From contig CAYUNN010000003.1 of NCBI GenBank assembly GCA_964445905.1, forward strand, positions 69,312 to 133,311: 64,000 nucleotides of DNA, written 5' to 3'. This document shows, one piece after another, positions 3,848-18,529 of this stretch. The position numbers and the translations under genes were made by a program. The notes beneath the pieces are model-generated. The model saw only the letters and a program-made list of their open reading frames with translations, made no database searches and was not told where the DNA came from. Positions within the stretch are counted from its first letter, which is position 1, and every line of letters begins with the position of its first letter. The DNA comes from an uncultured Candidatus Saccharibacteria bacterium (GTDB lineage: Bacteria; Patescibacteriota; Minisyncoccia; Minisyncoccales; JAGGXC01).

Positions 3848-5287
3848 ATGACCCCAAACGAATCATTATCAAAAGCTGATATAAAAAAAGCCTGTGATAT
3901 TCTTAGGCGAGACGATGGCGTAGGTGCCGGTAACTATGTTGAACAATTATCTTGGCTGCTTTTCTTGCGTGTTTTTGAAAATGTAGAACTTCAGCTTAAA
4001 GAAATAAAAGAGGCAGAGGGCGATAAACATCAAGATATTATTGATAAGGAATATCAATGGTCTTCTTGGGCCAGAAAAGATTGGAAAGATAAAGATGAGT
4101 TAGTTCATTTTGTTTCTAACAAGCTCTTTCCTTATTTAAGAAGTCTTAAGGGAACAAATGAAAAAGAGAAAATAGGAGAAATTTTTAGAGAATTAGACGG
4201 AAACAAAATTCGCTCCCCCTTCACATTGCTAGATGTAATTGAGATTCTGGATAAAGTTGATATGGTTCACTATCAAGACACGCACCTTTTGTCGCAGGTT
4301 TATGAGGAAATATTGCAGGAAATGGGCGCTGAAGGTGGTTGGGCCGGCGAGTTCTATACGCCTCGTCCGATTATCCGTTTAATGGTTAATATTATAGAGC
4401 CAAAATTAGGACAAAGTCTTCTCGACCCATTTGTCGGCTCAGCTGGTTTTTTAGTAGAAAGTTTTCATTATATTCAAGAAAATCTTAATAAAAAATCAAA
4501 AACTGGCCTAAGAGAATGGAAAATTCTACAAAATAAAACTTTTTATGGTCAAGAAAAAAAGCCACTTCCTTATTTGATTGGAACAATGAATATGATTCTT
4601 CATCAGATTTTAGTTCCTAATCTTATAAGAGCAAACACCTTAATGGAAGATGTTCATAATGTTTCGGAAAATAAAAAAGTAGATGTAATTTTGACAAATC
4701 CGCCGTTCGGAGGAAAAGAACATAAAAGCGTACAGAATAATTTCCCAATTCCGGTAGCTGCTACAGAAGGGCTTGCCTTGCAGTATGTAATGAGGCATTT
4801 AAAAAATGGTGGACGTTGCGGCATTGTATTACCAGAAGGACAGATTTTATTTGGTGGAGGAGCATTTCAGAAAATAAGAGAAGAGCTTTTAACAAAATTT
4901 AATGTTCATACAATTATATCATTGCCTCAAGGAGTTTTTGCTTCAATGGGGGCAGGGGTTAAAACAAATTTAGTTTTCTTTGAGAAAACAGGGCCCACAA
5001 AAGAAATTTGGTATGGCGAGATAAGCGGTAAATTTACCAAAAAGATTGTTGTTATAGATTCTAATTTAGAAGATGTTTATAAGAAATGGCAAAAGAGAGA
5101 GATTTCAGAAAATAGCTGGATAGTTCCTATTAAAGAGATTAAAGAACGTAATTTTGATATTTCTCCTAAGAATCCAAATAAATTAGCAGAAGAGGAGCTA
5201 CCAGAACCAAAAGAATTAGTAAAAAGAATAGAAGAATCCCAGAAAGAAGCAAAGCAGATTTTAGATAATATAAAAAAGATTTTGTAA
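3848..5287 (+). CDS. hsdM: Type I restriction-modification system, N6-adenine DNA methyltransferase subunit M
   Basis: Carries the N6-Mtase motif ILTNPPFGG, an AdoMet-binding region and the HsdM N-terminal domain. Translationally coupled to hsdS. Confidence 0.93.
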   Translation: MTPNESLSKADIKKACDILRRDDGVGAGNYVEQLSWLLFLRVFENVELQLKEIKEAEGDKHQDIIDKEYQWSSWARKDWKDKDELVHFVSNKLFPYLRSLKGTNEKEKIGEIFRELDGNKIRSPFTLLDVIEILDKVDMVHYQDTHLLSQVYEEILQEMGAEGGWAGEFYTPRPIIRLMVNIIEPKLGQSLLDPFVGSAGFLVESFHYIQENLNKKSKTGLREWKILQNKTFYGQEKKPLPYLIGTMNMILHQILVPNLIRANTLMEDVHNVSENKKVDVILTNPPFGGKEHKSVQNNFPIPVAATEGLALQYVMRHLKNGGRCGIVLPEGQILFGGGAFQKIREELLTKFNVHTIISLPQGVFASMGAGVKTNLVFFEKTGPTKEIWYGEISGKFTKKIVVIDSNLEDVYKKWQKREISENSWIVPIKEIKERNFDISPKNPNKLAEEELPEPKELVKRIEESQKEAKQILDNIKKIL

Positions 5288-5289
5288 CC

Positions 5290-7128
5290 ATGAAAGAATG
5301 GAAAAATTATAAATTAAATGAACTCGTGGATTATAGAAATGGACTTTGGGTTGGTAAAAATCCTCCTTTCGTAACAGCAAAGGTTATAAGGGTAACGGAG
5401 TTTAACAACGATGGAACACATAACCTTGAAACCGCAAGAGAATTAAAAGTTGAGAGCAAGAAATTAAAAGAACGGGTTATTAAGCCGAATCAGATATTAT
5501 TAGAAAGGTCTGGTGGAGGAGAAAAAAAACCGGTAGGGAGAGTAATTCTCTTCAAGGATAATATTAAAGATAGTACTTATTCATTTAGTAATTTCACTAC
5601 TTTGTTGATTCCAAATGAATCAGTTGTTAATCCAAGATTTCTTTTCTATTATCTTCATTTCTTTTATATATCTGGACAAACTAATCATTATCAGAAAGCG
5701 ATGATTGGTATTAGGAATCTGGAATTTAAAAGGTATTTAGAACAAGATATTCCTATACCGCTCGAAAGCAGTCAGCCAGACCTTGAAGAGCAAAAAAGAA
5801 TAGCTGATAAAATTGATAAATTATTTGTAGAAATTGATAGAGGGATTATAGATACAAAGGTTTTTCTTTTAGATTCTCGCAAAATATTTCAAAGTAAGCT
5901 AAAAAAGATTTTTGATGCTGAGCTTTCTAAAAATTGGAGAATAAAAAAACTCGAAGAATTAGCTGCTAATACTGCCTATCCAATAGGAGATGGCGACCAT
6001 GGTCAAATTAAGCCAAGTTCTTATAGAAACGACGGTATTCCATATGTAAGAGCCGCAGATATAGGTTGGGGGGAGTTCACGCCAAATGGAATGGTTTACA
6101 TTTCTGAAGAAACTCATAAAAATAATTTAAAGAGCGAACTAAACCCTGGCGATATTTTAATTGTAAAAACAGGAGCTACTATTGGTAAATGTTGTATTGT
6201 GCCTAATGATATTAAAAAGGCCAACACAACTGCATCCGTTGGTAAAATAACTGTAAATAAAGATAAAGTTCTCCCCAGGTGGGTTTTGTTAAGATTCTTA
6301 TCCCCATCCTTTTTGAAGTTCATTTGGTCAATTAGTCATAAAGCAGCTCAGCCGAGTTTTAACAATAGAGATATAAAATTATTTGAAATTCCTCTACCAT
6401 TTAAGAATAACAGACCAGATTTGGACGAGCAAAAGAAAATCATTATAAGATTGGATAAAATTCAAGAACAAGCTAAGAAACTTGAAGAAAAATATCAGGA
6501 ACAGTTAAATAATTTCAGCAAGCTGAAGCAATCCATATTGCAGCAGGCTTTTGAGGGCAAGTTGGTGACAGCAAAAGAGCAAGCACCAGAGAAAATAAGC
6601 ATTTTTCCTATTCAGCAAGCTGTTGGAGCAATTCTTCAAAGATTTGAAAGAGGAGAGATGGTTGTAGCTAAAATCTTATATTTGGCCCAGACCATAAATA
6701 AAGTTTCTTTTTCTATACCATTCACGCCACAAAATTTTGGACCATATGATAAAGCAGTAAAACGTGCTGTAACCGCAGGATTGAGCAGAAATAATAATTT
6801 TTTTTCCAAGAAAAAATATAGTAAGGGTTTTGTTTATGGGTTGTCTCAAGGCTCTGAAAAATTGTTTAATTATAGTAATGCAAAAACGTTGAGAGAAATG
6901 AATAAATTTTTAGATGAAATGATGCCTTATTTTAAAAGAGTTAAAAGTGCTGACATTGAAAGGCTTGCAAGCGCTTGTGAAATAATAAAAAACAATAAAA
7001 CCATAAACAATGAAGAAGTTTATAAAGAACTTTCAAAGTGGAAGCCAGAAAAATTTACAGCCCAAGAAGTTGACAGAAGTTTAAATTTTATTAAATCTAA
7101 GGGATGGGATAAAATCTTAATGAAATAA
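5290..7128 (+). CDS. hsdS: Type I RM specificity subunit S with an atypical ~190-aa C-terminal extension (Panacea/SocA-like)
   Basis: Two target-recognition domains are separated by conserved coiled-coil repeats (LEEQKRIADKIDKLFVEIDRG; LDEQKKIIIRLDKIQEQAKKLEE). The protein is 612 aa versus a typical ~400-450 aa. Its tail carries ...VVAKILYLAQTINKVSFSIPFTPQNFGPYDKAV..., resembling the KLqKLLYfAq...GPv signature of DUF4065. Confidence 0.88.
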   Translation: MKEWKNYKLNELVDYRNGLWVGKNPPFVTAKVIRVTEFNNDGTHNLETARELKVESKKLKERVIKPNQILLERSGGGEKKPVGRVILFKDNIKDSTYSFSNFTTLLIPNESVVNPRFLFYYLHFFYISGQTNHYQKAMIGIRNLEFKRYLEQDIPIPLESSQPDLEEQKRIADKIDKLFVEIDRGIIDTKVFLLDSRKIFQSKLKKIFDAELSKNWRIKKLEELAANTAYPIGDGDHGQIKPSSYRNDGIPYVRAADIGWGEFTPNGMVYISEETHKNNLKSELNPGDILIVKTGATIGKCCIVPNDIKKANTTASVGKITVNKDKVLPRWVLLRFLSPSFLKFIWSISHKAAQPSFNNRDIKLFEIPLPFKNNRPDLDEQKKIIIRLDKIQEQAKKLEEKYQEQLNNFSKLKQSILQQAFEGKLVTAKEQAPEKISIFPIQQAVGAILQRFERGEMVVAKILYLAQTINKVSFSIPFTPQNFGPYDKAVKRAVTAGLSRNNNFFSKKKYSKGFVYGLSQGSEKLFNYSNAKTLREMNKFLDEMMPYFKRVKSADIERLASACEIIKNNKTINNEEVYKELSKWKPEKFTAQEVDRSLNFIKSKGWDKILMK

Positions 7129-7129
7129 T

Positions 7130-9583
7130 ATGGCATTATCTGAAGCAGATATAAAAGCAAAATATATTGACCCTAAAATTCACGAGAGTGGATGGGCAGA
7201 GGAACTTTTAACTCGCGAATATCCAATTACGCAAGATAGGTTTTTTGTTGAAGGAGAAGAGTATAAGAAAATAAATAGCAAGAAGTTTGCTGACTATGTT
7301 TTAAAATATGATGATATAAATATTGCCTTAATCGAGGCGAAAGCCGAAGATGAAAGCCCGGGAAAACATTTAAGTCAGGCTCAAGATTATGGAAAAAGGT
7401 TAGATGTCCCTTTTGTTTATATTTCTAATGGCAAAAAAACAATTTTGTATGACAGGAGAAATTTAAAAACCCAAGATGTTGACACATATTTAACTCCAGA
7501 AGAAATGTACCAAAGTTATCTTGAGTGGAAGGGGCTCAATAAGGCAAAGGTAGATGCTTTAAATTATCCACCTTATATTTCACCAACACAAAAGCCAAGA
7601 TTTTATCAAGAAGCTGCTGTTAAGGCTGTTATAGAGAATATTGTTAAGGGCAATAAAAAGACACTATTAACTATGGCGACAGGGACCGGTAAGACTTATG
7701 TTTCTTTTCAAACAGTATGGAAATTAGTTAAATCCAAACACTTTCATAGAGTTCTATTTTTGACAGATAGGATAATTTTAAGAGATGATGCTTATGAAAG
7801 AGACTTTGAGCCATTTGGAGAGGCAAGAGAAAAAATAAAAGGAGGTAAATTTAATAAGAATCGTAATATTTATTTCTCTACCTATCAAACATTATTTGCT
7901 GAAGATTTATATAAGAAAATTCCTAATGAATTTTTTGATTTAGTTATTATTGATGAATGTCATCGTTCTCGTTATGGAGATTGGGGTATAATTTTAGACC
8001 ATTTTAATACTGCTTATAATTTTGGCATGACAGCTACCCCTAAACGTCAAGACAACATTGATGTTTATGAATATTTTGGCGAACCGGTCTATGAATATAG
8101 TATGGGCCAAGCCATAGAAGATGGTTTTCTTGTCCCGTATAAGATTTATAAAATAAAAACAAACCTTTATAAGAAAGGACTTCACACCAGTGATGCAGAA
8201 GAAGTTATTTATGATGATGAAATAGACCCCGATGAGTTGAAGGATTTTTATGAACCATCTGAATATGAAAGAGCTATAAGCATTCCAGACCAAATTGAAA
8301 CTTTATCCAAAAAGGTAGTTGAGATTTTAGATAAAACAAATCCATATGGAAAAACCATTATATTCTGTGTAGATATGGCTCACGCCCAAAGCGTTAAAGA
8401 TGAGCTTAATAGGGCAAAGGGTAACGAAGAATATGCTACCAGAGTAGTTGCAGAAGATAAGGATAATTTAAGACCCTTTAGAGATAAAGAAATGACAATG
8501 CCTGTAATTGCTACTACTGTTGATTTGCTTTCTACTGGGGTAGATATACCAAACCTTGAGAATATTATTTTTATGCGTCCTGTAAGCTCTCAGGTATTGT
8601 TTAAACAGATTATTGGACGTGGTTCTAGATTATGCGAAGGAAAGGGATTTTTTAGAATAATTGACTTTACTAACGCTACTAGACTAATTGACGAATGGGA
8701 TGTACCGAAACCACCGCCTCCTCCACCGGAGCCGCCCGAAGAACCTAAGGCTCCCTTCGATAAACTTCTTTTTGGAGTGTTGGTTGATGCTAAAACAGAA
8801 AAACCAATTCCAAAGGCAAATCTTATAGCTAAAATTAGCAGATGGTTTAAGATAGGAACAACTGATAAAAATGGGATATTTAATCTTTTCGGATTACCCT
8901 CCAACGATACTATTGGCTTCTCTGCAGAGAAAGATGCTTATAAAAAATTCAATAAGAAAGTTAAGCCTCAAGAATCAGAAAGTGATGCTCCTTATGTTTT
9001 TAGTTTAAAGTCAGAAAAAGCTAAAGGCAAAAAAATAAAAATTAAGGGAATTGAGGTAACTATTGAAGAAGAAATAGAGGTTGAGTTTGAGGGCAAAAAG
9101 CTATCTTATGCAGAATACAGAAAATATTCTAAAGAGAATATTAAGAAGAAGATTCACTCAAGTGATGAATTAAGAGAAATTTGGCTGACTCCGGAGAAGA
9201 AAAAGAAGTTTCTTAAAGATTTAGAGAGCAGAAACATTAACATAGAACTTATTAAATCCATAGACAATTTTGGAGATAGTGATAGTTTTGATATTATTGC
9301 TCACCTTGCTTTTAATTCCCCTCTTTTAACCAGAGAAGATAGAGTTAAACAGTTTCTGCGTAATAATAATCAAAACATAACTCAACACGGCCAAGCCATT
9401 CAGGAAGCTATTTATAATATTTTAGATATGTATAAATATACGGGGGAGGAGAATTTATCTTCTCAAATATTTATGCTTCCGAATATGAATGCTCAAAAGA
9501 AAGAGGTCCAAAGTAAATATCCTAATGGATTAGCAGGGTTTATGAATTTCTTAAAACAAAAAATATATAGCGAAGCCAAATAA
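7130..9583 (+). CDS. hsdR: Type I RM restriction subunit R (helicase-nuclease)
   Basis: Has an N-terminal PD-(D/E)xK region (IALIEAKAED), Walker A TMATGTGKT and DEAH-like IIDECHRS. A Pro-rich linker PKPPPPPPEPPEEP is followed by an EcoEI-R C-terminal-like domain. Confidence 0.9.
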   Translation: MALSEADIKAKYIDPKIHESGWAEELLTREYPITQDRFFVEGEEYKKINSKKFADYVLKYDDINIALIEAKAEDESPGKHLSQAQDYGKRLDVPFVYISNGKKTILYDRRNLKTQDVDTYLTPEEMYQSYLEWKGLNKAKVDALNYPPYISPTQKPRFYQEAAVKAVIENIVKGNKKTLLTMATGTGKTYVSFQTVWKLVKSKHFHRVLFLTDRIILRDDAYERDFEPFGEAREKIKGGKFNKNRNIYFSTYQTLFAEDLYKKIPNEFFDLVIIDECHRSRYGDWGIILDHFNTAYNFGMTATPKRQDNIDVYEYFGEPVYEYSMGQAIEDGFLVPYKIYKIKTNLYKKGLHTSDAEEVIYDDEIDPDELKDFYEPSEYERAISIPDQIETLSKKVVEILDKTNPYGKTIIFCVDMAHAQSVKDELNRAKGNEEYATRVVAEDKDNLRPFRDKEMTMPVIATTVDLLSTGVDIPNLENIIFMRPVSSQVLFKQIIGRGSRLCEGKGFFRIIDFTNATRLIDEWDVPKPPPPPPEPPEEPKAPFDKLLFGVLVDAKTEKPIPKANLIAKISRWFKIGTTDKNGIFNLFGLPSNDTIGFSAEKDAYKKFNKKVKPQESESDAPYVFSLKSEKAKGKKIKIKGIEVTIEEEIEVEFEGKKLSYAEYRKYSKENIKKKIHSSDELREIWLTPEKKKKFLKDLESRNINIELIKSIDNFGDSDSFDIIAHLAFNSPLLTREDRVKQFLRNNNQNITQHGQAIQEAIYNILDMYKYTGEENLSSQIFMLPNMNAQKKEVQSKYPNGLAGFMNFLKQKIYSEAK

Positions 9584-9604: not shown

Positions 9605-10531
9605 ATGCCCATATTTCAAATAAAAAATAAGAAACTAGTAAAAATTAAAGAAAAAGTTGCTCCTTTAGAAAAAGATATTCAAAAAGTAACGGAAGAAAAT
9701 TTAGAAGAAATATTCGGATTAAAATATATTTCTTCTGAATTTCCTTTAAATAATTTAAGAATTGATACTCTTTGTTTTAATCCGGAAACAAATTCTTTTG
9801 TAATCATAGAATATAAAAAAGATAGGAGTTTTAGTGTCATAGACCAAGGCTTTGCTTATCTTGCCTTAATGCTTAATAATAAAGCAGATTTTCTTTTAGA
9901 ATATAATGAGAAAACAAAAAAGCAGCTAAATAGAGATAATGTAGATTGGTCTCAATCTAAGATAATTTTTATTTCTCCTTACTTTACTCCTCACCAGAAA
10001 GGCGCTATAAACTTTAAAAACCTACCTCTTGAGTTATGGGAAGTCAATTTTTTTGGCAGTGATTTGATTGAATATGAACATATTGAACCAATTGAAACCT
10101 CTGAAAACATAGAAAAGATTACTGGAGGAGATAAGTTGATAAAAAGAGTGGCTAAAGATATTAAGCCTTACGACTTAGATTCGCATCTTAAAAAAGCATC
10201 TGACAAAACAAGAGATTTATATAGCTCTTTGAAAGAAAAAATATTTGAGTTGGGTGATGTTAAAGAAATTCCAAAACAACTTTATGTTGCCTACCGTATA
10301 GGAGACAGTCGTATAAATTTCTGTTCAATACATTTCTACAAAGAGAAGCTTGAAATTTATATTTTAATAGCCGATAAGAATCTTGATGACCCAAGGAAAA
10401 TGTCAAAAAAGGTTCCAAAGTCATATGGTTGGGCCAAGAATCTAAAAGTGTTCAACATAACATCAGAGAAAGACTTACGCTATGCAATGAATCTTATCGA
10501 GCAATCCTACGAGTTCAATAAAAACCGATAA
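9605..10531 (+). CDS. PD-(D/E)xK nuclease-fold protein (NucS/DUF91-like N-terminus + uncharacterised C-terminal domain), RM-associated
   Basis: D-x(n)-E-x-K pattern in ...LRIDTLCFNPETNSFVIIEYKKDRS...VIDQGFAYLALM. Tightly packed after hsdR with a 21-nt gap. Confidence 0.45.
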   Translation: MPIFQIKNKKLVKIKEKVAPLEKDIQKVTEENLEEIFGLKYISSEFPLNNLRIDTLCFNPETNSFVIIEYKKDRSFSVIDQGFAYLALMLNNKADFLLEYNEKTKKQLNRDNVDWSQSKIIFISPYFTPHQKGAINFKNLPLELWEVNFFGSDLIEYEHIEPIETSENIEKITGGDKLIKRVAKDIKPYDLDSHLKKASDKTRDLYSSLKEKIFELGDVKEIPKQLYVAYRIGDSRINFCSIHFYKEKLEIYILIADKNLDDPRKMSKKVPKSYGWAKNLKVFNITSEKDLRYAMNLIEQSYEFNKNR

Positions 10532-10545
10532 TTTTAGCTTGAAAC

Positions 10546-11397
10546 ATGAAGAAAGAATTAAAAGAATCAATAGAGAAAAGCGGAAATAAGCTTCATTTAG
10601 AAACAGCTGCTATTCTTGAAAAAAATGAATGGAATGTTGATTTAAGTTCTTATTATTATGATGATACTCAAAGAAAACCAAGAGAAATTGATATAATAGC
10701 TGATAAAGATTTTTCGATTAAAAATGAAGGTAAAGAGGTTGGGAAATTCAAGCTATTTTTATTCATTGAATGTAAATACTTAAAAAGTGATATAGGATTT
10801 ATAATGCGTGAAAATAATAGAAAGCAAGCAGAGGAGGCCATGATTTTTAGTGAAATAAATAAAGATAAAAATCTATTTTCTTATTTGGAAGGAATGCACG
10901 ATTATGGTTCTAATAAATTTACACATCATTATTTGAAAGATGAGTTTGTTGGAAAACTTTATAATACTACATCTGAGGACGAAAATAAGATTTTTAATGC
11001 GCTTACTCAGCCCATAAAATCCTTAATCTTCTTTCAGGAAAGTCTTTATAAAATGGAGCCGGAAGTTGGGGTTAAAAAGGCAATTTATTATCCTCTGGTT
11101 GTTTATTCGGGCATTGATGGAATATATCCAATTGAAGAATATGATAACTTAAATGACTTAAAGACAAAGGAAGGGGTGATATTTGCCTTAAATTATTCTT
11201 ATAAAAGTCCTACTAAAACAAAAACAGTTTATGGTGCGCAAGTTCCGATACTAACAACTCAACCCTTTTATATTGATTTTGTAAAAAAAGACGCCCTAGG
11301 TAGATTTTTAAGTAACGTTATTGGACAGGAAGCAAAAAGGTTTCAAAGATATTTTTCTAGCGTGGAGGAACAAAAAGATTTAAATAAAAATATATAG
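10546..11397 (+). CDS. Restriction-endonuclease-like fold protein (hypothetical)
   Basis: Second PD-(D/E)xK-like motif ...EIDIIADKD...LFLFIECKYL... in the same orientation as the RM genes. Confidence 0.4.
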   Translation: MKKELKESIEKSGNKLHLETAAILEKNEWNVDLSSYYYDDTQRKPREIDIIADKDFSIKNEGKEVGKFKLFLFIECKYLKSDIGFIMRENNRKQAEEAMIFSEINKDKNLFSYLEGMHDYGSNKFTHHYLKDEFVGKLYNTTSEDENKIFNALTQPIKSLIFFQESLYKMEPEVGVKKAIYYPLVVYSGIDGIYPIEEYDNLNDLKTKEGVIFALNYSYKSPTKTKTVYGAQVPILTTQPFYIDFVKKDALGRFLSNVIGQEAKRFQRYFSSVEEQKDLNKNI

Positions 11398-11416
11398 CAT
11401 TTTAAAATCTTAAGAC

Positions 11417-11650
11417 ATGAAAGAAACAATTAAGATACGTCATAAAAGAAAAGGATATAAAAAATTTTTAGCAGAAGAAGAAAGAGGATATTATCCGAGC
11501 AAAGATAAAAATAAATACCCATTAGGGGTTGATAAAATAAGAATAATTGATAAAGGAAAAAATCTGTATATAGAAAAAGTGATAGACAAAAAAACAGGGA
11601 AGATTATTAGGAACATAGAAGAATTATTAACCAAGCATAAAAAATTATAA
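11417..11650 (+). CDS. Hypothetical small basic protein (77 aa)
   Basis: Lys/Arg-rich ORF in the operon-like array. No motifs. Confidence 0.3.
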   Translation: MKETIKIRHKRKGYKKFLAEEERGYYPSKDKNKYPLGVDKIRIIDKGKNLYIEKVIDKKTGKIIRNIEELLTKHKKL

Positions 11651-11653
11651 AAT

Positions 11654-11944
11654 ATGTCATTAGAAAAATTATCAGACCGAATTGCCAAAAATCAATTTTT
11701 ATTCTCAGCTTTGTTGATTTTAATACTAACAGTTTACTTAATAGTCAATGAAGCTGACATCAAATATATAAATTTAGGGTTAATAACTTTCCTTTATTTT
11801 TATGTTTTATTTTTAACTAACTCTTTTTTTATGAAGGTTATTTATAAAGAAAAGGCTCAAGACCATAGCAGGTGGAAAGAATATATATTATTTTTCTTGT
11901 TTACTATTATATGGTTATTTATTTTGTTTAAATTTTATGAGTAA
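11654..11944 (+). CDS. Small membrane protein (96 aa, ~3 TM)
   Basis: Hydrophobic helices LFSALLILILTVYLIV, GLITFLYFYVLFL and ILFFLFTIIWLFILF. Overlaps the next gene's start. Confidence 0.4.
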   Translation: MSLEKLSDRIAKNQFLFSALLILILTVYLIVNEADIKYINLGLITFLYFYVLFLTNSFFMKVIYKEKAQDHSRWKEYILFFLFTIIWLFILFKFYE

Positions 11945-12596
11945 ATTAAGATTCATTACGGAACAACTGATAGAAGCTAACAATCTACTTTTTAATTCCA
12001 TTAAAACTTTGTATAAAGAAGATGATAAAAATAGTGGGAAATTATATCACCCCATATCTGTGATGTTGTTATCTTTTTGTTTTATTGATTGCTTAAGAAG
12101 GCTTAATTATATTTTTGAAAATGGAAAAGACGGTAAGGAGAATTTTAATAACAAAATTAACTATGAGGACTTTTTGAACCGTTTTATTATAAACAACGAT
12201 AAATATAATCAGTATAATTACTCTTTTGATGCAAATAGTTTATATCAGATAAGAAATGACCTAGTCCACTCTTTTGGATTAAAGAGGATATATAATAATG
12301 ATATTTTTAATTTTGTAGGAGGTGATTTATTTGAGAGCAAAAAAAATGTAGAAGACCTTAATATTTTAGGAAAACTAAATAATCCTTTAGCTAGAAACAT
12401 ACATACTATAACATTTAAATCTTTTTTAGAAATAATAAAAGAGGGTATGATGAAGATGTTAAGAGAGTGGGAAAAGAAGACTCTTAAAGATAAAGATTCA
12501 GAATCTTTTAAGAAGAATATAAATGATTTACACTTAGATTTAAAAGATATTACATATTTTTATTTAGGTTCAAGGTTAAAAAATAAAGTCGAATAA
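11937..12596 (+). CDS. Hypothetical protein with candidate HEPN-like R-x4-H motif (abortive-infection-like)
   Basis: ...SLYQIRNDLVHSFGL... fits the HEPN Rx4-6H signature. It follows a tiny membrane protein inside a defense island. The family assignment is unverified. Confidence 0.35.
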   Translation: MSKLRFITEQLIEANNLLFNSIKTLYKEDDKNSGKLYHPISVMLLSFCFIDCLRRLNYIFENGKDGKENFNNKINYEDFLNRFIINNDKYNQYNYSFDANSLYQIRNDLVHSFGLKRIYNNDIFNFVGGDLFESKKNVEDLNILGKLNNPLARNIHTITFKSFLEIIKEGMMKMLREWEKKTLKDKDSESFKKNINDLHLDLKDITYFYLGSRLKNKVE

Positions 12597-12615: not shown

Positions 12616-13149
12616 ATGAAAAAATATATCGTAATTATTGTAGCTTTGATTCTTGTTGGAGGATTTTCTATTGTTAGTGCATCTCAAGAAGGAAATCCTT
12701 TTCAGAAAATATGGACTGCAATAAATAATCTTCAAGAGCAAATCTATAGTATAGAGCTTACTCCCGGCCCAGAAGGACCGCAGGGACCAGAGGGTCCAGG
12801 GGGTCCAGAGGGTCCGCAGGGACCGGAAGGACCACAGGGAATACAAGGTCTGGAGGGACCTGCAGGTCCTACTATTTTTCCTGAACCAGCATTTGATAGT
12901 GGTTGGGTAGAAATACCACCATATAATTCTGTAACAGATATTCACCACGATGTAGGAGGAGATGTAAATGATTATTTCATTTATGCTACATATCTTAGGC
13001 ACAATGATACCCTTACATCACATAGAACCGCAGCCGATGCAATATGGTGGGAAGATGTAGAACCTAATAATATACAGTTAATAACTAATGGAGATGTAAC
13101 TAATGAATTTAAGGCAGCTAGAATAAGAATTTGGGTTATAGGAGAATAA
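12616..13149 (+). CDS. Secreted collagen-like triple-helix repeat protein with globular C-terminal domain
   Basis: N-terminal signal/TM ([18 protein letters not shown]). Eleven perfect G-x-y triplets ([35 protein letters not shown]) sit at nt ~12769-12875. A C-terminal domain of ~95 aa follows. Confidence 0.75.
12769..12875 (+). repeat. 9-bp-unit collagen-like (GPEGPQ) tandem repeat inside the CDS
   Basis: ggaccgcagggaccagagggtccagggggtccagagggtccgcagggaccggaaggaccacaggga. The copy number stays in frame. Confidence 0.7.
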
Positions 13150-13161
13150 TAATTAAAATAA

Positions 13162-13192
13162 AAAGCTCATTGTTTTTCTTTGAGCTTTTTGT
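13162..13192 (+). terminator. Rho-independent terminator after the collagen-like gene
   Basis: aaagctca ... tgagcttttt: an 8-bp stem plus a T-run. Confidence 0.45.
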
Positions 13193-13451
13193 TTATGCTA
13201 GTAATTTTTGGGCTAGATTAAGAGTTAATTCAATATTTTGAATATAATCTGCCCATTTAGATGTTCGAAAACTGTCCCATCTGGGGAGCCGATAATTTCA
13301 AAATAAAACACCTTTTAGAAACGGTGTTTAATTTTTTTAATTCTCCTTATTCAAAGAGCAAACAAAAATTGTTCAACAGCGCGTTTTTTCTTGTCGAGAT
13401 CAGGGCACTTTGGGAGTGTTCGAACATAAGGAATATAATTAAAATTAATTT

Positions 13452-13529
13452 AGTTCACAATTTATAAGATAATTATAAATAGTCAGTTTACAATATAGTT
13501 TACAATTATATTTATCTACTTGACAATTA
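13452..13529 (+). promoter_or_regulatory. Repeated AGTT(T/C)ACAAT motifs plus TTGACAAT promoter-like box upstream of the HTH-GHKL gene
   Basis: agttcacaat (13452-13461), agtttacaat (13485-13494), agtttacaat (13497-13506) and cttgacaatta (13519-13529) lie within a 360-bp intergenic region. Confidence 0.3.
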
Positions 13530-13556
13530 TTTTAATATAGAGTAACCTTAGATTAC

Positions 13557-14582
13557 ATGAATAGAAAATACAAAATTAAAGAATTTATCAAGGTTAAAAA
13601 ACGGGTTTCTTCTACAGAAGTGGCGCGGCACTTCGGTTTTACTCGTCAGTACGCAAGCCAGCTTTTAAGAGCTATGGTTAATGCTGATACAATTGTTAAA
13701 TTTGGTTCTACCCGCTCTGCCTTCTATACTTTACCGGAATTAATTGACGAAGTTGGACCAACGGCGGTTGAGCGTCGTTTTAAGAATAAAAATGTAAAGG
13801 AGCATGAAATTTTTGATGATTTGATTTCTGCCTTTCCCGCTTTTCGTATTGTTCCCGAAAACATCCAAAGCATAGCACATTACGCATTTTCGGAAATGCT
13901 TAATAATGCTATTGAGCACTCACGCTCTGAAAATATTGAGGTCAAATTAGAAAGTAACGGCATGATTAGATTTGTTGTAGACGACTTTGGTATAGGTATA
14001 TTTAGAAATGTCATGCATCAGCGTAAACTTAAGTCAGAATTAGAAGCAATGCAGGATTTATTAAAAGGCAAGGTCACCACGGATCCAAAAGCGCATACAG
14101 GCGAAGGTATTTTCTTTACTTCGAAAGCAGCTGATCGTTTTGTTTTAGAAAGTTTTGGATACAAGATGATCGTAGATAATACGATTCCCGATGTTTTTTT
14201 TCACGAAGAAGAGCGGGTAAAACGCGGTACGCGTGTTACTTTTGCTATTGCACGAAATAGCAACAGACATCTAAATAAAATTTTTGAAAAATATCAATCA
14301 AAACCCGGCAGTTACGCTTTTGACAAAACCGAAGTACGTATTCGTTTATTTATAATGGGGACTGTCTATGTTTCGCGTTCTCAAGCGCGTCGTGTTTTAG
14401 TTGGTTTGGAAAAGTTTAAGAAAATTATTCTTGATTTCGACCGAGTGCCCAATGTTGGCCAGGCATTTGCTGATGAAATTTTTAGAGTTTTTCAAAGTCG
14501 TTACCCTAATATCTCTATTGAACCGATTAATATGAACAAGACCGTTCGTTTTATGGTCGAAAGAGTCGAAAAGCCGAATTGA
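13557..14582 (+). CDS. HTH + GHKL (HATPase_c, anti-sigma-kinase-like) + STAS-like (DUF4325-like) fusion protein
   Basis: N-terminal HTH (SSTEVARHFGFTRQYASQLLRAM). Then an N-box SEMLNNAIEHS, G1 VVDDFGIGI and G2-like HTGEGIFFTS. A ~90-aa STAS-like C-terminal domain follows. GC is visibly higher than in the neighbours. Confidence 0.55.
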   Translation: MNRKYKIKEFIKVKKRVSSTEVARHFGFTRQYASQLLRAMVNADTIVKFGSTRSAFYTLPELIDEVGPTAVERRFKNKNVKEHEIFDDLISAFPAFRIVPENIQSIAHYAFSEMLNNAIEHSRSENIEVKLESNGMIRFVVDDFGIGIFRNVMHQRKLKSELEAMQDLLKGKVTTDPKAHTGEGIFFTSKAADRFVLESFGYKMIVDNTIPDVFFHEEERVKRGTRVTFAIARNSNRHLNKIFEKYQSKPGSYAFDKTEVRIRLFIMGTVYVSRSQARRVLVGLEKFKKIILDFDRVPNVGQAFADEIFRVFQSRYPNISIEPINMNKTVRFMVERVEKPN

Positions 14583-14621
14583 AGCCCGGAGGATGTTTTT
14601 TTACCAGAGTGAAATAAATTT

Positions 14622-15275
14622 ATGAGAGGAAAAAACAAAAAAAATTTAATAATTTTAGGAATAGCCACATTAATTTTGTCTGTTTTTATTGTTTTACAAC
14701 AAAACGATTCTTATTTGCCAGCTGCTATATACCATTCTCTACAGGAAGAAAATAAAGTGACCGTTGCCGGTTGTCCCACTTTTTATTATATGCTTGATAA
14801 ATTAAGCAATAACGGGATTAATGTTATTAAAACTAATTCTACAGCAGAAAGCCTTCGTTATTTACAAGAAAGTAAAGCAGATTTAATTATTGCGGGTAGG
14901 GCTTTAAAACCGGAAGAACCTAATTTTGATTCCGGCATTATTGGGCCCGGATATTCTTTTGTTTCTGAAAATGAGTTATTAATTCTTGATAAACAAATGG
15001 GCGATTACGATTTTTTTACAGACCTTTCGGCAGAAGAAATAATAGAAAAATTTCCCTATATTATTTATGACAAAATATTAAAAGTAGAGAATGTTTACGA
15101 TTACTTAGACGCAGGAATTGTTATTACTTCTGTTGAAAATACGGACTATTCAAAAAGCGAAATCGTTCATGTTTATACGGAAGATAGATCTAGACACCTT
15201 TTTTCACGCACTCCAGTAATTTATTATTCTGAAAACGTAAATAGCCTAGATTATATTAAAAGTATCCTTAGGTAA
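14622..15275 (+). CDS. Hypothetical secreted/membrane-anchored protein (217 aa)
   Basis: N-terminal TM/signal LIILGIATLILSVFIVL. No confident family. Confidence 0.45.
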   Translation: MRGKNKKNLIILGIATLILSVFIVLQQNDSYLPAAIYHSLQEENKVTVAGCPTFYYMLDKLSNNGINVIKTNSTAESLRYLQESKADLIIAGRALKPEEPNFDSGIIGPGYSFVSENELLILDKQMGDYDFFTDLSAEEIIEKFPYIIYDKILKVENVYDYLDAGIVITSVENTDYSKSEIVHVYTEDRSRHLFSRTPVIYYSENVNSLDYIKSILR

Positions 15276-15528
15276 AAATTTAGCCAAACAAGCTCTAATG
15301 TTGTTTGCTGCTTAGAATTCTCGCCCCCGCCTGTTATTTTTGGCCGTATTTTACTTCGGAGTATAATATTCTTAGTTTTCTTGCATTATATTATTTATTG
15401 TGTTATAGTTGAATAACTATTGTTTATAGTATCTCGAAAGAATAATATTTCGATACCCTACACAACAATTTATCATTTAAAGGTGATCGACATGTTATGA
15501 CTTTCGGGGTTTTTTATATTAAAAAAAT

Positions 15529-16734
15529 ATGTATAAAAGAAAAAATAATCAAAATAGAAACAAAAACTTCAGGACTGGAAAATTTAGTTCTCACAGAAGA
15601 AATGGTCGTTCGCCACGTAAATTTCAAGGTGAACGAATTGATGCGTCTAAATATATTCAAAAACCGGCACAGAATAATCCCTTGGAAGAATATAAGCCGA
15701 AAAATGTTTTTCGGGATTTTGGATTTTGTCAAAAACTTCAGATCAATCTAGAACAGAGAAAATATTCTGTCCTGACTCCTGTTCAAGACCAGTCTATCGG
15801 GCCGATTTTAAAGGGACGTGATTTAATTGGCTTAGCTAATACGGGAACTGGGAAAACAGCAGCTTTTTTGCTTCCCCTAATTGATAGAGCTTATAAGAAT
15901 AAACAAGAAAGAATATTAATTATTGCTCCAACAAGAGAATTAGCTATTCAGACAGACAAAGAATTCCGTGCTTTTGCTAAAAATATGAATTTGTATTCTG
16001 CTATTTGTGTTGGTGGAAATCCTATTCGTAAGCAAATTTTCGATTTGAGACGCAATCCGAATTTTGTCGTTGGAACACCGGGGAGGTTAAAAGATCTGTC
16101 TAATAAAAAACTTCTTAGGTTTAGTTCTTTCCGAACTATTGTTCTCGATGAAGTGGATCGGATGTTAGACATGGGATTTATTAACGATATTACTGCTATT
16201 TTAAATTCTCTTCCTCGAGAAAGACAAACTTTGTTTTTTTCAGCTACTTTACCTGAGAAGATCAAAGGTTTGGCTAGCCAATTTTTAAAAGAAGCTGTTG
16301 TAGTACAAGTTAAGACAAGAGATACGGCTGCCAATGTATCCCAAGACATCGTCAGAGTTAAAAATAAACTTGAAAAGTTTGATAAGCTTAAAGATTTATT
16401 AAACAAGCCAGAGTTTACCAAGGTGTTAATCTTTACTGAAACTAAAAGGGATGTTGAAAAGCTTTCGGTCAGCCTTTTTAAAGAAGGTTATAAATCGACC
16501 TCAATTCACGGTGATAAAAGACAAAGTCAAAGACAAAAATCATTATCGGCATTTCGGAACGACCAATGTAAAATATTGGTAGCTACCGATGTGGCTGCGC
16601 GCGGTCTTGACATTAATAATATTTCTCATGTTATTAATTACACAGTACCTCGAACTTATAATGACTATATTCATCGGATTGGCCGCACAGGAAGAGCTTT
16701 AAAATTTGGTCAAGCTTTGACTTTTATTGATTAA
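15529..16734 (+). CDS. DEAD-box ATP-dependent RNA helicase
   Basis: Q-motif, Walker A ANTGTGKTAAF, DEVD box, SAT and HRIGRTGR motifs. Arg/Lys-rich N-terminal tail. Confidence 0.9.
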   Translation: MYKRKNNQNRNKNFRTGKFSSHRRNGRSPRKFQGERIDASKYIQKPAQNNPLEEYKPKNVFRDFGFCQKLQINLEQRKYSVLTPVQDQSIGPILKGRDLIGLANTGTGKTAAFLLPLIDRAYKNKQERILIIAPTRELAIQTDKEFRAFAKNMNLYSAICVGGNPIRKQIFDLRRNPNFVVGTPGRLKDLSNKKLLRFSSFRTIVLDEVDRMLDMGFINDITAILNSLPRERQTLFFSATLPEKIKGLASQFLKEAVVVQVKTRDTAANVSQDIVRVKNKLEKFDKLKDLLNKPEFTKVLIFTETKRDVEKLSVSLFKEGYKSTSIHGDKRQSQRQKSLSAFRNDQCKILVATDVAARGLDINNISHVINYTVPRTYNDYIHRIGRTGRALKFGQALTFID

Positions 16735-18529
16735 AAATTCTATGGAGATAAGAAACATTGCCATTATTGCTCACGTTGATCACGGTAAAACAGCCCTTAC
16801 TGACGCTTTAATGCGCCAAACGGGCATGTCCGAAGTTGAAGACAGCATGGACAGCAATACTCTTGAACAGGAAAGGGGAATAACAATTTATTCAAAAAAC
16901 ACCTCTATCTATTATAAAGATACAAAAATAAATATTGTGGATACACCGGGTCATGCTGATTTTGGTTCGGAAGTAGAACGTGTTTTACGTTCAATCGATT
17001 CAGTGCTTTTGGTGGTTGATGCCCAAGAAGGACCGATGCCTCAAACAAAATTTGTTTTAAAAAAATCTCTTGATTTAGGTTTAAAGCCAATCGTGGTGAT
17101 CAATAAAATTGATAAATCGGCCGCGAGAACTGACATTGTCCAAGAAATGGTTTATGAACTTTTTCTTGATCTGAAAGCGAATGACGAACAGCTTGATTTT
17201 ACTACAATTTATGCGATTGCCAGAAATGGCATTGCAAAAAAAGATTTAGACGACGACTCTATTAATTTGAATCCTCTTTTGGAGACGATCTTAAAAGAAG
17301 TTCCGGTTGCTTCGAGAAAGGAAGCAAAGAATAGATCCTTGCGTATCCAGCCTTTTAATCTAGCCTATGATAACTTTTTAGGAAGGTTGGCCATTGGTAG
17401 AATTTATGACGGAGAAATAAAAGACACTTCTACGGTAATTATTAAAAATTCTAAGGGAGAAATTCGAGAAGGAAAAATTTCAAAGTTGTTTACTTTTGAA
17501 GGATTAAAAAGAAAAGAAATATTATCGGCGGCGGCCGGAGACATTGTGATGATTGCTGGCTTGCCGGATATATTTATTGGGGAAACTATTTGTGAAAGTG
17601 AAGATCAGGAGGCTCTTCCGATGATTAATATCGACGAACCGACAATTTCATTAAATATGTCCGTCAACAGTTCTCCTTTTGCCGGTAAAGACGGAAAATA
17701 CGTAACTAGTAGGCAAATAAGAGAAAGACTGGAAAGGGAATTAGAAGTTAACGTTGGCTTAAAAATTGATTTCTCTTTTGATAATTATTATAAAATATAT
17801 GGTAGAGGCGAGATGCACCTTGCAATTTTATTAGAAAATATGCGTCGTGAAAATTATGAAATACAAATTTCTCAGCCTCACGTAATTATCAAAGAAGAAA
17901 ACGGAATAAAGTACGAACCTTTTGAGGAAGTAATTATTACCGTTCCAGAAGAAATGTCTGGCATTATTATTAAAAAGCTTTCTCTTCGGCGTGGGAATAT
18001 GATTGAAATGGTTCCAGAGGGCGGCAGTGCGAGGATTGTGTTTGAAATTCCAACTAGAGGATTGTTAGGATATAAAAATGAATTTGTAATTGACACTCAA
18101 GGAGAAGGAATTATTTGTACCAGAGCTATTGGATTTAAGCCATATGCTGGAAAGATTGAAAGGCATAGTTTAGGATCAATGATTTCTATGGCGACCGGAA
18201 AAACTCTTGGTTTTTCCCTTTTTAATCTTCAGAACAGAGGAGCTTTATATGTAGGTCCCAGCACGGAAGTTTACGAAGGTATGGTTATTGGAAACTCATC
18301 TAAGGGGAACGATTTAGTTGTAAATCCGACCAAAGGAAAGCAGCTAACTAATATGCGGGCGTCAAAATCTGACGAAGCTATTTGTTTAACGCCACCGACA
18401 GAACTAACCCTTGAGATGGGTATGAGTATTGTGAGCGAAGATGAATATTTAGAAATTACACCAAATCATATTCGTTTAAGAAAAAAGTTTCTGACCGAGA
18501 ACGAAAGAAAGAAACAAAGAAAAGATTAG
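16727..18529 (+). CDS. typA: Translational GTPase TypA/BipA
   Basis: G1 [22 protein letters not shown] and EF-G-like domains. 600 aa, typical of BipA. Confidence 0.92.
   Translation: MIKNSMEIRNIAIIAHVDHGKTALTDALMRQTGMSEVEDSMDSNTLEQERGITIYSKNTSIYYKDTKINIVDTPGHADFGSEVERVLRSIDSVLLVVDAQEGPMPQTKFVLKKSLDLGLKPIVVINKIDKSAARTDIVQEMVYELFLDLKANDEQLDFTTIYAIARNGIAKKDLDDDSINLNPLLETILKEVPVASRKEAKNRSLRIQPFNLAYDNFLGRLAIGRIYDGEIKDTSTVIIKNSKGEIREGKISKLFTFEGLKRKEILSAAAGDIVMIAGLPDIFIGETICESEDQEALPMINIDEPTISLNMSVNSSPFAGKDGKYVTSRQIRERLERELEVNVGLKIDFSFDNYYKIYGRGEMHLAILLENMRRENYEIQISQPHVIIKEENGIKYEPFEEVIITVPEEMSGIIIKKLSLRRGNMIEMVPEGGSARIVFEIPTRGLLGYKNEFVIDTQGEGIICTRAIGFKPYAGKIERHSLGSMISMATGKTLGFSLFNLQNRGALYVGPSTEVYEGMVIGNSSKGNDLVVNPTKGKQLTNMRASKSDEAICLTPPTELTLEMGMSIVSEDEYLEITPNHIRLRKKFLTENERKKQRKD

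Follow-up and report, generated by a model that had tools for sequence, protein, structure and literature searches.

A 64,000-nucleotide stretch of an uncultured Candidatus Saccharibacteria contig (CAYUNN010000003.1, positions 69,312 to 133,311; hereafter the window) carries a gene that raises the question of whether a kinase-like domain, its STAS-like partner and a DNA-binding head, joined in one chain, form a switch that controls its own expression. The first-pass annotation had read the gene in this way, as a kinase fused to its phospho-acceptor and preceded by repeats that looked like autoregulatory operators. The single open reading frame (ORF; 13557-14582, + strand) encodes a protein of 341 aa that consists of a winged helix-turn-helix (wHTH) domain, a SpoIIAB/RsbW-type GHKL ATPase and, at the C-terminus, a STAS-like DUF4325 domain. 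As set out below, the acceptor serine is replaced by glutamine in this protein, and the repeats upstream of the gene appear to be the target of its own winged helix. We consider it rather likely that the gene encodes a stand-alone, monocistronic, self-regulated one-component regulator whose control module is a SpoIIAB/RsbW/CapK-like GHKL domain together with DUF4325.

The domain assignment draws on several independent comparisons. Pfam matches DUF4325, described as STAS-like, at aa 276-330 with an expectation value (E) of 7.5e-15 (54.8 bits against a cut-off of 23) and HATPase_c at aa 107-231 (E 1.4e-7; 32.3 bits against a cut-off of 26.4). HATPase_c_2 is matched at aa 106-197 with 27.4 bits, which is exactly its cut-off (E 3.8e-6), and matches to winged-HTH families at aa 4-61 are below threshold. 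The DUF4325 profile (PF14213) is likewise matched by 43 of 43 diverse C-terminal domains of the family. An AlphaFold2 model built from 96 homologues (predicted local distance difference test score 77.9; predicted template modelling score, pTM, 0.55) contains three folded units, and Foldseek comparison with the Protein Data Bank (PDB) pairs each of them separately: the head with winged helices of the Zalpha, MarR, BlaI and IclR types, the middle unit with the anti-sigma kinases UsfX and RsbW (8jzt, 8ih8 and 6m36; probability 1.0, template modelling scores 0.61-0.71), and the tail with RsbS (6jhk_B) and the STAS domains of prestin (SLC26) and SULTR4;1 (probability 0.99-1.0). Foldseek E-values for the whole chain are all weak (>1e-3), which is to be expected when three domains are joined by flexible linkers. 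The tail is modelled with the alternating strands and helices of a STAS domain (strand 259-265, helix 274-281, strand 289-296, helix 302-315, strand 320-324, helix 328-336). Pfam, the model and Foldseek thus concur on the HTH, the RsbW/SpoIIAB-type core and the STAS-like tail that the annotation had named, the tail being the part whose fold it had left to be checked. Further searches yielded little: a scan of the protein against NCBIfam gave noise only, a PDB sequence search with the single protein gave no match, PDB searches with family profiles gave weak matches only, to wHTH domains, DesK and VapS, and the viral fold library BFVD holds no entry with the same architecture.

The GHKL domain carries all of the elements expected of a SpoIIAB/RsbW-type kinase, namely the Glu and Asn of the N-box (E113-N117, in SEMLNNAIEHS), the DxGxG of G1 (D143-G147), the ATP lid (K170-T175) and the GxG of G2 (G182-G184). 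In an alignment of 100 diverse family members that share 31-100% identity, E113, N116, N117, H121, S122, D143, G145, G147, G171, T174, H180, G182 and G184 are invariant, so the motifs that had been quoted from this one sequence are present and hold across these relatives. Conservation of the tail is equally strong, both in the invariant SRSQARR motif (aa 273-279) and in G301-Q302-x-F304. The recognition helix of the winged helix lies around aa 30-42 (RQYASQLLRAMVN).

The three structures matched best by the GHKL unit are anti-sigma factors complexed with sigma F or with an antagonist, and this, together with the HATPase_c_2 match, would suit a DNA-tethered anti-sigma factor in which the GHKL domain sequesters sigma as SpoIIAB and RsbW do and the fused STAS-like domain is the built-in antagonist. 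We find this highly improbable, given that no sigma factor gene is a conserved neighbour and that CapK and VapK, the kinases of two systems compared below, share the fold yet act on STAS proteins and not on sigma (PMC13373217).

The nearest experimental precedent for the tail is VapS, a STAS antitoxin; experiments have established that the GHKL kinase VapK phosphorylates its Ser48 (Chambers et al., EMBO J 2026, PMC13373217). A VapS fragment matches DUF4325 at E 3.3e-14, and all VapS homologues carry PF14213. Because VapS also matches DUF4325, the tail of the window protein belongs to the same family as a proven kinase substrate, and to that extent the fusion of a kinase with a phospho-acceptor makes evolutionary sense. 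The claim that the tail is an acceptor of the canonical kind does not survive inspection of position 302. VapS S48 stands opposite Q302 in both a hidden Markov model alignment and a MAFFT alignment, and helix alpha2 of the model begins at this residue, which is Gln in 99 of the 100 family members, Pro in one and never Ser or Thr. The conserved Ser/Thr at the start of STAS helix alpha2 that characterizes partner-switching proteins is absent here. Position 302 follows beta3 by 7 residues, a spacing that we take to be the same as that of S58 in SpoIIAA. With its acceptor serine replaced by glutamine, the tail is ruled out as a canonical phospho-acceptor.

A self-contained partner switch, in which the GHKL domain would phosphorylate its own fused STAS-like domain in cis or between subunits and thereby toggle DNA binding, could still operate through another residue. 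The kinase motifs are intact, the family shared with VapS includes a proven GHKL-kinase substrate (PMC13373217), and possible non-canonical acceptors exist in S273/S275, invariant and at the start of STAS helix alpha1, and in T174/T175 of the lid. The near-universal glutamine at the canonical position argues against such a switch, as does the lack of a PP2C phosphatase or other resetting enzyme as a conserved neighbour; among the neighbours at about 75 loci, no PP2C phosphatase, target sigma factor or effector is conserved. We judge self-phosphorylation to be decidedly unlikely.

The protein is one of a large, uncharacterised family, common in Patescibacteria (the candidate phyla radiation, CPR), whose members appear in databases simply as DUF-containing proteins. 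Database searches match it to more than 7,400 proteins. The best 120 matches come from Patescibacteria metagenome-assembled genomes (MAGs), are 60-95% identical to it and 255-398 aa long (nearly all 339-348), and are named only "DUF4325 domain-containing protein" or "anti-sigma regulatory factor". A search of 1.84 billion cluster representatives returned 679 clusters at 50% identity (E<=1e-30), nearly all of about 340 aa and aligned end to end; the clusters come mostly from Patescibacteria, and some are of phage origin. A relative is present in at least 583 GTDB species, as counted in species-representative genomes; among the matches listed, nearly all are Patescibacteria, and they cover all major CPR classes along with a few Syntrophaceae, Ignavibacteria, Omnitrophota and others. 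In the literature we found no study of the family and no described wHTH-GHKL-STAS family in CPR, and mentions of DUF4325 are incidental. More distant relatives, 39 in number and 31-43% identical, lie on IMG/VR viral contigs (L090-L128); they are full-length and have their own promoter-flanking repeats and normal Shine-Dalgarno sequences. In one gut phage (L108) the family gene (4983-6032) stands between a phrog_36 late regulator and the small terminase subunit, and this relative and the window protein both match phrog_3364, to which no function is assigned.

We next consider the DNA upstream of the gene. The ACAAT repeats that the annotation had noticed, AGTTCACAAT, AGTTTACAAT twice and TTGACAAT, make up four TT(T/G/C)ACAAT boxes, all on the + strand, which start at 13454, 13487, 13499 and 13520 and are thus 33, 12 and 21 bp apart. 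The feature as first delimited, 13452-14582, ends correctly with the gene; its first base marks the first upstream box, the ORF itself starting at 13557, so that the feature under study comprises the ORF plus the final 105 bp of the upstream gap. With respect to dyad symmetry, the boxes are direct repeats, and no box-based dyad occurs in the window lineage; inverted repeats in the upstream region were rejected as AT-rich noise. Taken singly, boxes are no commoner in the window than by chance (9 found, 10.8 expected), and three boxes in the same orientation within 41 bp occur in the window only upstream of this gene.

The arrangement recurs in relatives. Those of 60-82% identity, which lie in unrelated contexts, have boxes at about -98, -86, -67, -55 and -34 from the ATG: boxes at -98/-86 in two loci (L003 and L004) are equivalent to the window's distal box, the box at about -67 is conserved in L001, L003, L004, L007 and L010, and that at about -55 in close relatives. 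An array rhythm of 11-12 and 21-22 bp is the rule among about 80 loci, and the boxes reach a density of about 3 per 165-nt upstream segment compared with 0.083 per kb in the flanks. Within a locus, all boxes share one extension 3' of TTKACA (AAT, AAC, ATAG, ATT or AGT), and this extension co-varies with the protein lineage and with the sequence of the recognition helix. The branch of 38-45% identity has inverted GTTGACAACTT sites on both sides of the -10 instead. When the exact three-box pattern was sought in metagenomes, 27 of 34 arrays were immediately upstream of a family gene, and two of the remaining 7 are too near a contig end to judge. Because the arrays are conserved and co-vary with the recognition helix across these loci, the encoded winged helix very probably reads the boxes. 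The proposal that they are autoregulatory operators is thereby strongly supported: lineage-covarying arrays lie over the -35 and -10 of the gene's own promoter, where the protein would be expected to bind.

The predicted promoter of the gene is of the sigma-70 type, and its -35 hexamer, TTGACA, is supplied by the proximal box. Relatives have, in the same place, TTGACA or TTTACA followed after 17 nt by TATACT, TATGCT, TAGAAT or TACAAT; in the window, an alternative promoter with the box at 13499 as its -35 (TTTACA-17-GACAAT) is also possible. Of 82 loci, 81 have a promoter with 9 or more of 12 positions matched, distances from the -10 to the ATG cluster between 6 and 11 nt, and Shine-Dalgarno-like cores are found in only 9. 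Because the -10 lies 6-11 nt before the ATG and Shine-Dalgarno cores are rare, the mRNA is predicted to be leaderless or nearly so and to lack a Shine-Dalgarno sequence. An Rfam search of the upstream region gave noise only. Since the boxes cover the -35, and in many lineages also the -10, their occupancy should block RNA polymerase, which favours autorepression over activation.

The same overlap raises the possibility that the boxes are promoter elements only, such as tandem or overlapping sigma-70 promoters or UP-like repeats, and not sites for the encoded protein. Every box contains TTGACA/TTTACA and TACAAT, and the 21-22 bp spacing yields consensus -35/-10 pairs. However, promoter function would not account for a lineage-specific 3' extension that is common to all boxes of a locus and tracks the recognition helix, for boxes phased at 11-12 bp upstream of the -35 that have no role in RNA polymerase contacts, or for the inverted sites downstream of the -10 in the distant branch. 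The AAT extension is also absent from the window's other promoter-like sites; because only 9 of the 92 TTKACA sites in the window continue with AT, the extension is not an RNA polymerase requirement in this genome. We therefore regard an exclusively promoter role as very unlikely.

Arrays also occur away from the start of a family gene. In two Syntrophaceae MAGs, a second full array of operator and promoter follows the stop codon of the family gene (L083, 4985-5045; L085, 4960-5010) and faces an unrelated next gene, of 259 aa in L083 and 483 aa in L085. The neighbouring gene is probably under the control of the regulator as well in these lineages, and the second arrays show that the boxes are a portable regulatory unit. 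Three-box arrays without a downstream family gene were seen in L130/L158, where the array faces a gene on the opposite strand, in L145, where a 219-aa ORF that appears by eye to encode an AbiEii-type nucleotidyltransferase lies 500 nt downstream, and in L151. In L162 the array abuts a family copy truncated at residue 89. Such arrays, lacking an intact downstream family gene, could be remnants or extra targets.

For the autoregulator that we favour, we propose that several copies of the protein bind the boxes through their winged helices and repress their own promoter. Because spacings of 11-12 and 21-22 bp give a 33-bp period, the boxes lie on one face of the helix, and binding would be multimeric and head-to-tail along that face. 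The GHKL and STAS-like domains would form the sensing part, with ATP/ADP and some ligand altering oligomerisation or DNA binding. The STAS-like domain, with Gln at the acceptor position, would be a built-in partner without a phosphorylatable site and not a substrate. In this it would resemble the internal STAS domain of CapK, which together with the GHKL domain forms a groove that senses single-stranded DNA (ssDNA; PMC13373217). Beyond this, the protein could act on a regulon in trans, phosphorylate another protein or bind sigma.

Several observations weigh against this proposal. No second box pair was found in the 64-kb window and very few boxes, as candidates for further targets, are present in the flanks of most other loci; a gene that regulated only itself would have no obvious output. 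The boxes contain -35/-10 consensus sequences, and their conservation could partly reflect promoter function alone. A non-canonical phosphorylation site could exist at the invariant S273 or S275. Finally, the inter-domain geometry of the model is uncertain, as its pTM indicates, so that contact between the STAS-like and GHKL domains is at most conjectural.

A bolder version, which we hold to be doubtful, is a single-chain, closed-loop GHKL/STAS switch. Here a VapS-like STAS domain, fused to the kinase and with its serine changed to glutamine, would be a permanent pseudo-substrate whose docking or undocking, with nucleotide state or a ligand such as ssDNA, drives the assembly or disassembly of head-to-tail filaments on the direct-repeat operators. 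If this were true, the family would be among the few broadly conserved dedicated transcription regulators of Patescibacteria, would possibly couple energy state or DNA damage/phage attack to expression, and would have phage-borne copies in other phyla.

Table 1. Features of the locus and its surroundings, in window coordinates.
Feature	Position	Strand	Basis or remark
Distal box TTCACAAT, one-mismatch copy	13454..13461	+	Corresponds to AGTTCACAAT of the first-pass annotation, 13452-13461
Box TTTACAAT, first of 12-bp pair	13487..13494	+	Within AGTTTACAAT, 13485-13494
Box TTTACAAT, second of pair	13499..13506	+	Within AGTTTACAAT, 13497-13506
Proximal box TTGACAAT	13520..13527	+	First six bases are the -35 hexamer
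Probable -10 hexamer TAACCT	13543..13548	+	17 nt after the -35, 8 nt before the ATG
Gene for wHTH-GHKL-DUF4325 protein, 341 aa	13557..14582	+	ORF call, Pfam, homologue searches
Winged helix-turn-helix domain, aa 1-66	13557..13754	+	Pfam, model, Foldseek, hhalign
GHKL ATP-binding domain, anti-sigma-kinase type, aa 71-246	13767..14294	+	Pfam, Foldseek, alignment
STAS-like DUF4325 domain, aa 259-336	14331..14564	+	Pfam, model, Foldseek, alignment
Codon CAG for Q302	14460..14462	+	Position of the acceptor serine in VapS (S48) and SpoIIAA (S58)
Type I restriction-modification (R-M) operon	hsdM 3848-5287, hsdS 5290-7128, hsdR 7130-9583		Upstream of the target gene
PDC-S18/DUF5655 candidate defence gene	9605-10531		Upstream of the target gene
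Four genes without a family match	10546-12596		Between the PDC-S18/DUF5655 gene and the collagen-repeat gene
Gene for collagen-repeat protein	12616-13149		Directly 5' of the 407-bp gap
217-aa gene, no Pfam match	14622-15275		Directly downstream of the target gene

The gap of 407 bp (13150-13556) that separates the gene from the preceding ORF begins with about 300 bp (13150-13450) that are apparently non-coding, with short ORFs only and a terminator-like hairpin near 13302-13340. The product of the preceding ORF, 177 aa long, has a hydrophobic segment at its N-terminus and a GPEGPQ repeat like that of collagen (Pfam Collagen, E 4e-5). The L003 defence island contains a homologue, 27% identical, of one of the four genes without a family match. 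Beyond the 217-aa gene come a DEAD-box helicase gene and TypA/BipA, as judged by position and sequence. None of this context is shared by the family: no neighbour family is conserved in about 75 loci, the best being Fic-like, in 8 loci and at varying positions; the downstream gene shows no strand or distance bias, only about half of the loci having it in the same orientation as the family gene; and the window's flanking genes are found next to no other family member except on a contig of the same strain (L163). The family gene is usually monocistronic.

The annotation had further described the gene as visibly GC-richer than its neighbours, suggesting horizontal acquisition. Whole-window GC is 33.7%, and the GC of the gene is 0.373 compared with a mean of 0.339 (sd 0.041) for 64 ORFs, or z=+0.85; for GC at third codon positions, z=+1.38. 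The difference lies inside the gene-to-gene variance, and the argument from GC falls with it. The CG-rich look is nevertheless real at the level of CpG and of CGN codons for Arg. The ratio of observed to expected CpG, 1.59, is the highest of the 64 ORFs (z=3.5), and 22 of 29 Arg codons (76%) are CGN compared with usually <30% elsewhere in the window, a pattern that resembles family copies in hosts of 42-45% GC. In 78 loci, the GC of the family gene is usually below that of the flanks (mean -0.05). In the window, CpG ratios of 1.1-1.6 and raised CGN-Arg extend over the target gene and the next three genes (13557-18529), compared with about 0.6 in the upstream defence island and most of the window, which amounts to a compositional boundary at the dinucleotide level and not in GC.

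Comparison with the near-identical metagenome contig L163 revealed 51 differences, 50 of which fall within 13733-14390 (658 bp in the GHKL core; 7.6% divergence); the remaining 635 aligned bases, which take in the promoter, the two ends of the gene and the beginning of the following one, contain 1. The distribution of differences makes this segment a clear candidate for an intragenic recombination tract, and the allele a mosaic. Codon usage, the mosaic allele, the absence of common neighbours and, across loci, a GC usually below that of the flanks do point to exchange.

These signs also bear on whether the gene is a mobile conflict gene, that is, a single-gene phage-defence, exclusion or addiction module, or the sensor and regulator of one, and no housekeeping regulator. 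In favour of this are the mosaic tract and atypical codon usage seen here, the lack of synteny with any other locus, a GC usually lower than that of the flanks, and the 39 relatives on viral contigs, one of which occupies an accessory ("moron") slot in its gut phage. In the window the gene follows an island of Type I R-M and PDC-S18 genes, the L003 copy lies among GmrSD, AAA_21 and UvrD genes, Fic genes are nearby in the 8 loci mentioned above, and both CapK/CapS and VapKSC are immune regulators or effectors (PMC13373217). Against these stand a PADLOC v2 search that gave 0 families at E<=1, the lack of an effector domain (nuclease, pore or NADase) in the protein, the lack of a conserved partner gene, and a very strong conservation across all CPR classes that is unusual for defence genes. 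On balance we consider a conflict gene unlikely.

With the autoregulator as our preferred reading, how does the protein compare with known systems? It shares with SpoIIAB-SpoIIAA and RsbW-RsbV the GHKL fold and motifs of anti-sigma Ser kinases and a STAS-fold partner. It differs from them in having no phosphorylatable Ser at the start of alpha2, in having no associated sigma factor or PP2C phosphatase among the family's neighbours, and in possessing an N-terminal DNA-binding domain and own-promoter operators, both of which the classical modules lack. Kinase and antagonist are already fused in a single chain in the multidomain Rv1364c of M. tuberculosis. Winged-helix regulators of the OmpR/PhoB type sit head-to-tail on direct repeats that recur every 11 bp and either overlap the -35 or take its place. 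The likeness to these is a functional analogy only: the window protein has no receiver domain, homology is limited to a generic winged helix, and the control module is instead GHKL plus STAS-like.

VapK and VapS belong to the VapKSC toxin-antitoxin system (Chambers et al., EMBO J 2026, PMC13373217; PDB 9Z7O), and CapK, of the domain order HTH-STAS-GHKL, is an ssDNA-activated kinase that phosphorylates Ser54 of CapS (PMC13373217; PDB 9Z71-9Z73). CapS, of the order STAS-wHTH, is an autoregulated repressor, which occupies its own promoter in a cooperative manner and may form polymers along DNA, and the internal STAS domain of CapK is a non-substrate (PMC13373217). For comparison we recovered two capK/capS loci (L164 and L165) and one vapKSC locus (L166); a search for VapS on plasmids and phages gave no useful match. 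The N-box flavour N-x-x-(E/D)-H-S-x-S is common to the window protein, CapK and VapK, and BLASTP of the window protein against the CapK and VapK kinases gives E 0.007-0.07.

VapS is the top PDB match of the family's tail profile, a weak one (E 0.26), and VapK is a GHKL protein with a similar N-box and G1 (N..EHS.S and DFGxGI; hhalign E 4.5e-4, probability 33%). The kinase-domain similarity is marginal, however, in that only the segment from N-box to G1 aligns. VapK and VapS are two proteins, and VapK is arranged STAS-GHKL and lacks a DNA-binding head; at the position of the window family's Gln, VapS has a conserved Ser/Thr acceptor (S48); and VapS binds a PIN toxin, whereas the target gene has no PIN neighbour.

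CapK and CapS together contain the same three kinds of domain, HTH, GHKL and STAS, and the wHTH of Vibrio CapS is similar to that of the window family (hhalign probability 73%, E 3e-5). Their context is also reminiscent of the window: capKS lies just downstream of R-M in about 20% of capKS loci (PMC13373217), and the target gene lies 4 kb downstream of its Type I R-M operon. On the Vibrio gigantis plasmid p1 (L164, 1-3689), capK and capS directly follow a Type I R subunit gene and precede a CBASS operon. The differences are nonetheless considerable. CapK has the order HTH-STAS-GHKL and the window protein the order wHTH-GHKL-STAS; only N-box to G1 aligns with CapK (hhalign probability 14.6%; BLASTP E 0.007-0.02 over about 50 residues); neither CapK nor CapS matches DUF4325; and capS always follows capK, while no capS-like neighbour is found at the target gene or across about 75 loci. 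CapS sites are palindromic, whereas the window boxes are direct repeats, and CapKS controls a downstream operon, whereas the family gene usually stands alone. Membership in the CapK or VapK families was rejected on account of the domain order, the absence of a capS or PIN neighbour and the marginal alignments.

By its domain content and motifs, the protein is best described as a single-chain, reordered, stand-alone relative in kind of the CapK and VapK systems. It extends the principle of a GHKL kinase with a STAS partner, known from CapK/CapS and VapK/VapS, to a case in which all parts are fused and the acceptor Ser has become Gln, and it raises the question of what role a kinase-like domain has when its built-in partner lacks a phosphorylatable site. 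Patescibacteria have tiny genomes and few studied regulators, and here a family present in hundreds of their species comes with a clear, directly testable cis-element, while the co-variation of operator and recognition helix is a natural data set for the DNA-recognition code of the winged helix. Although the gene represents no new type of system beside the known GHKL/STAS ones, it gives a clean, testable way into how Patescibacteria regulate their genes.

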